Source: a virus (lineage: Duplodnaviria; Heunggongvirae; Uroviricota; Caudoviricetes). Taken from it: a stretch of DNA of 10,690 nucleotides. Below the pieces are notes generated by a model. It made no database searches. It was not told the DNA's origin and saw only the letters and a list, made by a program, of their open reading frames with translations. Below, one piece after another: positions 6,584 to 6,598 of this stretch. The position numbers were made by a program, and so were the translations under genes. The stretch is taken from positions 1-10,690 of IMG/VR virus record IMGVR_UViG_2740892230_000009. One strand, written 5' to 3'. Each line of letters begins with the position of its first letter. Positions within the stretch are counted from its first letter, which is position 1.

Positions 6584-6598
6584 TCGCTTTGTCAGCGA
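6584..6598 (-). promoter_or_regulatory. Candidate nutR boxB hairpin
   Basis: Minus-strand RNA UCGCU-GACAA-AGCGA (5-bp stem, pentaloop), same loop as the candidate nutL boxB at 10097-10111; between cro and cII. Confidence 0.55.

Follow-up and report, generated by a model that had tools for sequence, protein, structure and literature searches.

A hairpin between cro and cII is very probably the nutR boxB of an H-19B/933W-type lambdoid Shiga-toxin phage

The DNA analysed here, a stretch of 10,690 nucleotides referred to below as the window, comprises the early and immunity region of a Shiga-toxin phage of the 933W/TL-2011a type. TL-2011a matched it with 99.8% identity across 84% of the window, and 933W with 99.3% identity across cII-cro-cI. 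On the minus strand a consensus scan located a pR-like promoter (TTGCAA-16-CATAAT, 6896..6923) which lies where the 933W record (AF125520) places pR. It is followed by cro (6637..6864), an HTH protein of 75 amino acids which was assigned from the list of open reading frames, the Pfam matches HTH and P22_Cro and the 933W annotation, and which is of the 933W immunity type. Next comes cII (6202..6498, minus strand; 98 amino acids; Pfam Phage_CII, E 1e-31). The N antiterminator is encoded on the plus strand at 10277..10660 (127 amino acids; Pfam N_peptide, E 2e-15) and carries the arginine-rich motif GNSRSRRRER. The reading frames of N, cI, cro, cII, O and a helicase are all intact. The helicase gene, downstream of O (2487..4880, minus strand), codes for a DnaB-type protein of 797 amino acids with an intein-like insert; its two DnaB domains, N- and C-terminal, are separated by the Pfam matches LAGLIDADG_3, Hom_end and Hint. 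At this position 933W has a lambda-type P gene instead. At 6226..6253 (plus strand), antisense to the cII 3' end, there is a strong hairpin which resembles a terminator and has a T-run; in lambda the oop terminator is located here. Between cI and pL/nutL (7711..9621, plus strand) we found genes for a DUF3024 protein and for a Ser/Thr kinase of the eukaryotic type (stk), and between them a 153-amino-acid open reading frame which matched no Pfam family, a gene content in agreement with the 933W annotation. A terminator follows stk at about 9787..9812.

A preliminary description, made from the letters of this DNA, had proposed a nutR boxB on the minus-strand transcript at 6584..6598, between cro and cII. 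Both the hairpin and its location were confirmed, the former by sequence and fold, the latter by the open reading frames and Pfam assignments. Read from 6598 to 6584, the DNA TCGCTGACAAAGCGA yields the RNA UCGCUGACAAAGCGA, i.e. UCGCU-GACAA-AGCGA, which folds into a stem of 5 bp with a GACAA loop ((((((.....))))); MFE -5.6 kcal/mol, z -3.8). A 5-bp stem with a GNRA-like pentaloop is what is expected of boxB in a nut site. Upstream on the transcript, at 6621..6629, lies the boxA-like element CGCUAUUUU (DNA CGCTATTTT), inside the annotated 933W nutR. The spacer between boxA-like element and boxB measured 22 nt; it had been estimated at about 23 nt. The element agrees with the boxA consensus CGCUCUUUA at 7 of 9 positions, the mismatches being position 5 (A for C) and the last position. 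Within the spacer a second hairpin, GGAC-auuc-GUCC (6603..6614, minus strand; dG -5.0, z -2.7), is joined to boxB by the linker UACG (6599..6602), which every N subtype examined has at both nutL and nutR. The order on the minus strand is pR-like promoter, cro, the site at 6629..6584 and cII. This is the position of nutR in lambdoid phages. The promoter is located about 300 nt upstream, and the rightward early transcript carries the site.

The zone between the 3' side of boxB and the start of cII (6499..6583, minus strand) is G-poor and C-rich and identical to that of H-19B. It contains the hairpin UAUGCG-uuucca-CGCAUA (about 6554..6537; dG -8.3, z -3.3). By identity, this zone would correspond to the zone of Rho-dependent termination at H-19B tR1. 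A scan of the whole window against Rfam with E up to 10 gave no nut-related match and only two chance snoRNA-like matches; it means that no Rfam model reached threshold, and nothing more.

A twin of the hairpin is present on the plus strand. Downstream of pL and about 165 nt upstream of N, sequence, fold and scans identified a spacer hairpin GAUUC-gaauau-GAAUC, a UACG linker and a boxB (together 10077..10111), all within the annotated 933W nutL. The boxB itself, GCGCUGACAAAGCGC (DNA GCGCTGACAAAGCGC), spans 10097..10111. The preliminary description had stressed that the two hairpins share loop and stem length and that CUACG precedes both. This was correct: each has a 5-bp stem and a GACAA loop, and CTACG is located at 6603..6599 and directly 5' of 10097. 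Over 19 nt nutL and nutR are nearly identical, including a compensatory closing pair. Both hairpins are on the correct strand, each downstream of its promoter. An exhaustive scan of both strands for Watson-Crick stems of 5 bp with a GACAA loop found exactly these two in the window. Shuffled versions of the window (2000, with dinucleotides preserved) contained on average 0.03 such hairpins, and only one of them had two or more (1/2000). A small hairpin followed by UACG and a boxB-like hairpin was also found in only these two places. The preliminary description was therefore right in all its details.

The site is not new. In the 933W record AF125520 the same bases, from boxA to boxB, are annotated as 'nutR; putative N-utilization rightward' (13096..13141; CCGCTATTTTCACAATGGACATTCGTCCTACGTCGCTGACAAAGCG, an exact match to the window), and the nutL feature of that record includes the counterpart of the plus-strand hairpin. 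933W has the same flanking cro and cII, and the site itself does not differ from that in the window. With the Stx1 phage H-19B (AF034975) the cro-cII spacer is identical at 138 of 138 positions (6636..6499 of the window), a stretch which spans the boxA-like element, the spacer hairpin, UACG, boxB and the tR1 zone. The H-19B cro is unrelated to that of the window, i.e. the immunity is different. The N proteins of H-19B and the window are identical at 124 of 127 residues and have the same arginine-rich motif; none of the three differences is in the N-terminal RNA-binding part.

For H-19B, experimental data are available; its nutR/tR1 serves as a routine template in published studies, among them assays of the Sen laboratory. 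N-dependent read-through of the Rho-dependent terminator tR1, which overlaps nutR, was demonstrated in vivo and in vitro (PMC3526286). The H-19B nutR holds two hairpins; N and NusA protect the spacer and the loop G of boxB, and NusA and Rho leave footprints on the spacer (PMC3526286). The N mutants R3H, S11F, R15C/P and R18P lose antitermination at nutR/tR1, and these mutations lie within or beside the motif 12-RSRRRER-18 (PMC3526286). RSRRRER is also present in the window N. In the supplements to PMC3526286 the nutR sequence is not given as text. A full-text search for boxB sequences returned only papers on the P22 boxB and uses in tethering assays.

How does the site compare with other named systems? 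The nut sites of P22 have the same GACAA pentaloop as those in the window, and the P22 nutL boxB is GCGCUGACAAAGCGC, i.e. that of the window nutL. This is the RNA of the solved complex with the P22 N-peptide (PMC11480772). The P22 N protein (gp24) and the window N have the motif G-N-(A/S)-(K/R)-(T/S)-R-R-x-E-R in common; in the alignment, GNSRSRRRERLK of the window N stands opposite GNAKTRRHERRR of gp24. In both phages the GACAA loop goes together with a motif G-N-x-basic-x-R-R-x-E-R, as in a P22-type boxB. A C-terminal YAAGxRKSKQxTAR is also shared, and BLASTP aligned the window N with P22 N in the C-terminal 30 residues only. P22 differs from the window in its consensus boxA GCUCUUUA, in a short spacer without a spacer hairpin or UACG linker and in another stem of the nutR boxB.

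The nutR of lambda likewise lies between cro and cII and is composed of boxA, spacer and boxB in this order; its boxB has a stem of 5 bp and a pentaloop, and the Rho-dependent tR1 overlaps the site. There, however, the loop is GAAAA, the spacer of about 8-9 nt has no hairpin, and the arginine-rich motif of N is different. Antitermination in lambda strictly needs boxA, NusB and S10. Phages of the VT2-Sakai/g341c/POCJ13 type have nearly the same nutR cassette as the window, with spacer hairpin, UACG and the stem UCGCU/AGCGA, yet their loop has one nucleotide less and is a true GNRA tetraloop (GAAA or GCAA), and their N motif is G-(S/T)-A-A-x-R-R-R. In g341c the tetraloop hairpin is annotated as 'Putative NutR' and the next hairpin as 'Putative tR'; the latter is the equivalent of the hairpin at about 6554..6537 of the window.

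We then considered conservation. Among 80 IMG/VR loci which encode the same N at 99-100% identity, the nutL boxB was present in 79 and the nutR boxB in 73, 1.4 to 3.7 kb away from N. Paired boxB elements are conserved in these related phages; the preliminary description had held that a lack of such conservation would refute its call. The 138-nt module was found in 1035 of 5426 complete E. coli genomes. The nutR cassette begins right after the cro stop codon and is kept behind five unrelated cro 3' ends, a pattern expected of a functional module which is retained through mosaic exchange.

Further loci were gathered by scanning with the spacer hairpin GGACATTCGTCCTACG. In the boxB which follows it the stem UCGCU/AGCGA hardly varies, and the loop is GACAA, GAAA or GCAA. 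A GACAA nutR is accompanied by a GACAA nutL or, in SPN9CC-like phages, by a C-GUCAA-C nutL, and by an N protein starting MTRRTQFKG(N/T)SR. A GAAA or GCAA nutR is accompanied by a GAAA or GCAA nutL and the N motif G-(S/T)-A-A-x-RRR. Among the loci where both sites were found, none was discordant for nutR, nutL and N motif; the locus counts include some contigs twice and so do not represent independent events, but the absence of exceptions stands. The tetraloop was observed at nutL and nutR of seven relatives (L083, L084, L085, L086, L087, L125 and L178), and GAAA and GCAA boxBs can be mixed within one such phage.

Covariation of the boxB stems had been suggested as a check on the two calls. The nutR orthologues alone offered no usable covariation, having a near-invariant stem with one U.G variant; comparisons of nutL with nutL and of nutL with nutR were therefore the only source. 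Across these, pair 1 is U-A, G-C, C-G or A-U, pair 2 is C-G or G-C, and pair 5, across nutL and nutR of the subtypes, is U-A, U.G or C-G. With these compensatory changes and like-with-like pairing of the loops in all loci that could be scored, the check supported the boxB assignment. The spacer stems differ in sequence (GGAC/GUCC, GAUUC/GAAUC, GUCGA/UCGAC, GGUGA/UCACC), and their place before UACG is constant. A small hairpin with UACG stands ahead of every boxB in this N family.

The observed sequence, fold and position, the pairing with nutL, the identity with H-19B and the comparative linkage lead us to conclude with a probability of about 0.93 that the hairpin at 6584..6598 is the nutR boxB of a lambdoid Stx phage of the H-19B/933W type. 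The identity proposed in the preliminary description is supported by the 933W annotation of the same bases, by H-19B and by the linkage of loop and N motif. Against it speak the GenBank annotation of 933W, which reads 'putative', the off-consensus boxA (two positions) and the restriction of covariation to comparisons which involve nutL. Given the 933W annotation of these bases and their characterisation in H-19B, this nutR boxB is already known for the H-19B/933W group and is no new discovery. The value of the assignment lies in a correct annotation of the window and in support for criteria based on sequence.

From the literature on H-19B, where N-dependence of nutR is established, we would expect the copy in the window to behave likewise. 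RNA polymerase starting at pR would transcribe cro and then nutR on the minus strand. The N-terminal arginine-rich motif GNSRSRRRER is predicted to bind the GACAA loop of boxB, and N would have NusA, bound to the spacer, and NusG as its partners. Remaining on the elongating polymerase, N would confer resistance to the Rho-dependent tR1, which overlaps and follows nutR. Suppression of later terminators as well would permit expression of cII, O, helicase and downstream genes, with cII as the first gene whose full expression would depend on read-through past nutR/tR1. In the same way nutL would serve the leftward operon including N itself, and the window N is expected to bind both boxB hairpins. 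By antitermination at nutR, N gives the polymerase access to the rightward early operon and so eventually to Q, which expression of Shiga toxin in these phages needs. The site is therefore biologically important.

Three other explanations were weighed. The hairpin might mainly be part of the rut region of tR1, or an element of RNA stability or processing, and no N-binding site. The G-poor flanks would agree with a rut region; moreover, nutR and the rut site of tR1 overlap and Rho footprints have been mapped to the spacer (PMC3526286). Yet at H-19B nutR N and NusA protect the loop G of boxB (PMC3526286), the identical loop occurs at nutL where no Rho terminator overlaps, and the co-segregation of loop type with N motif argues against a role in rut only. 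We therefore consider an exclusive rut or processing role very unlikely; a tR1/rut function and N binding can coexist. Alternatively, this might be a true nut site which is an unused relic of a defective prophage. Many of the 1035 E. coli genomes with the module surely contain defective prophages. On the other hand, the early reading frames listed above are intact in the window, and its nut sequences are exactly those of the inducible phages 933W and H-19B, so that a relic is also quite improbable.

Finally, a boxB of only 15 nt and of moderate stability (-5.6 kcal/mol) might be a chance hairpin without function. Two were observed when 0.03 were expected, nutR is nearly identical to nutL over 19 nt down to the compensatory closing pair, and immunity regions which are unrelated to one another have kept the site. 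The likelihood of a functionless hairpin is negligible, and a chance origin of the hairpins is ruled out by the shuffles, the conservation and the linkage data.

The boxA-like element is polymorphic. In otherwise identical cassettes (loci L002-L167) about 60 loci carry CGCTATTTT as against about 47 with CGCTCTTTT. The A form CGCUAUUUU is that of the window, H-19B and 933W; the other copies have CGCUCUUUU, which is closer to the consensus. A few copies of the cassette carry CCACTCTTTT. The NusB-NusE-BoxA structure paper holds no information on an A at position 5. At nutL of the 933W/H-19B type no consensus boxA was recognisable (10060..10076, plus strand; GGUGAAUAUACAAC), and a nutL of the VT2-Sakai type (L086) has GGCUCUUUAAACAAC at the aligned position. 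Neely and Friedman, in 2000, reportedly found a reduced need for, or dispensability of, NusB, S10 and boxA in the H-19B system, and the spacer hairpin of H-19B is said by them to bring boxA-side and boxB-side elements together. A nutL of the 933W/H-19B type without a recognisable consensus boxA fits this reported lower requirement of H-19B N for host factors.

The comparative data raise a further, tentative idea, which we regard as possible rather than probable. Many Stx and P22-like phages share the nutR cassette, in either the pentaloop or the tetraloop form. The difference of essentially one nucleotide in the loop, together with the N motif, might constitute a specificity switch between co-resident prophages, and the A/C polymorphism in boxA might tune the dependence on NusB and S10. 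Such a loop switch would keep co-resident prophages from interfering with each other's antitermination. Both the switch and the boxA tuning may already be implicit in the literature on H-19B and Stx phages.

Some minor observations are added. In the Salmonella phage SPN9CC (L082) an N of 86% identity goes with a nutR boxB whose GACAA loop is closed by a U.G pair. The boxB of its nutL (about 6870..6890) is GCUC-CGUCAAC-GAGC with a loop GUCAA flanked by C/C, which resembles the C..C-flanked nutR boxB of P22, CCGC-CGACAAC-GCGG. An extra GACAA hairpin with one G.U pair, TCCGCGACAAGTGGA, was detected on the rightward strand in 23 of the loci L002-L081, at 3.2-4.9 kb from N. The window has no such hairpin; in the relatives it could represent a further binding site of N or a fortuitous fold within a gene. 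Between nutL and N of the window, the leader (10122..10265, plus strand) forms a long-range helix in which GUGAACUUUGGGGUGUGGUG pairs with CACCUACCACACCACCAAAGUUCAU; the whole leader folds with -63.7 kcal/mol (z -3.8). This recalls the N leader of lambda, which is processed by RNase III. From nutL to N the sequence of H-19B is not that of the window: in H-19B, as in other loci, the same flanks enclose another insert.
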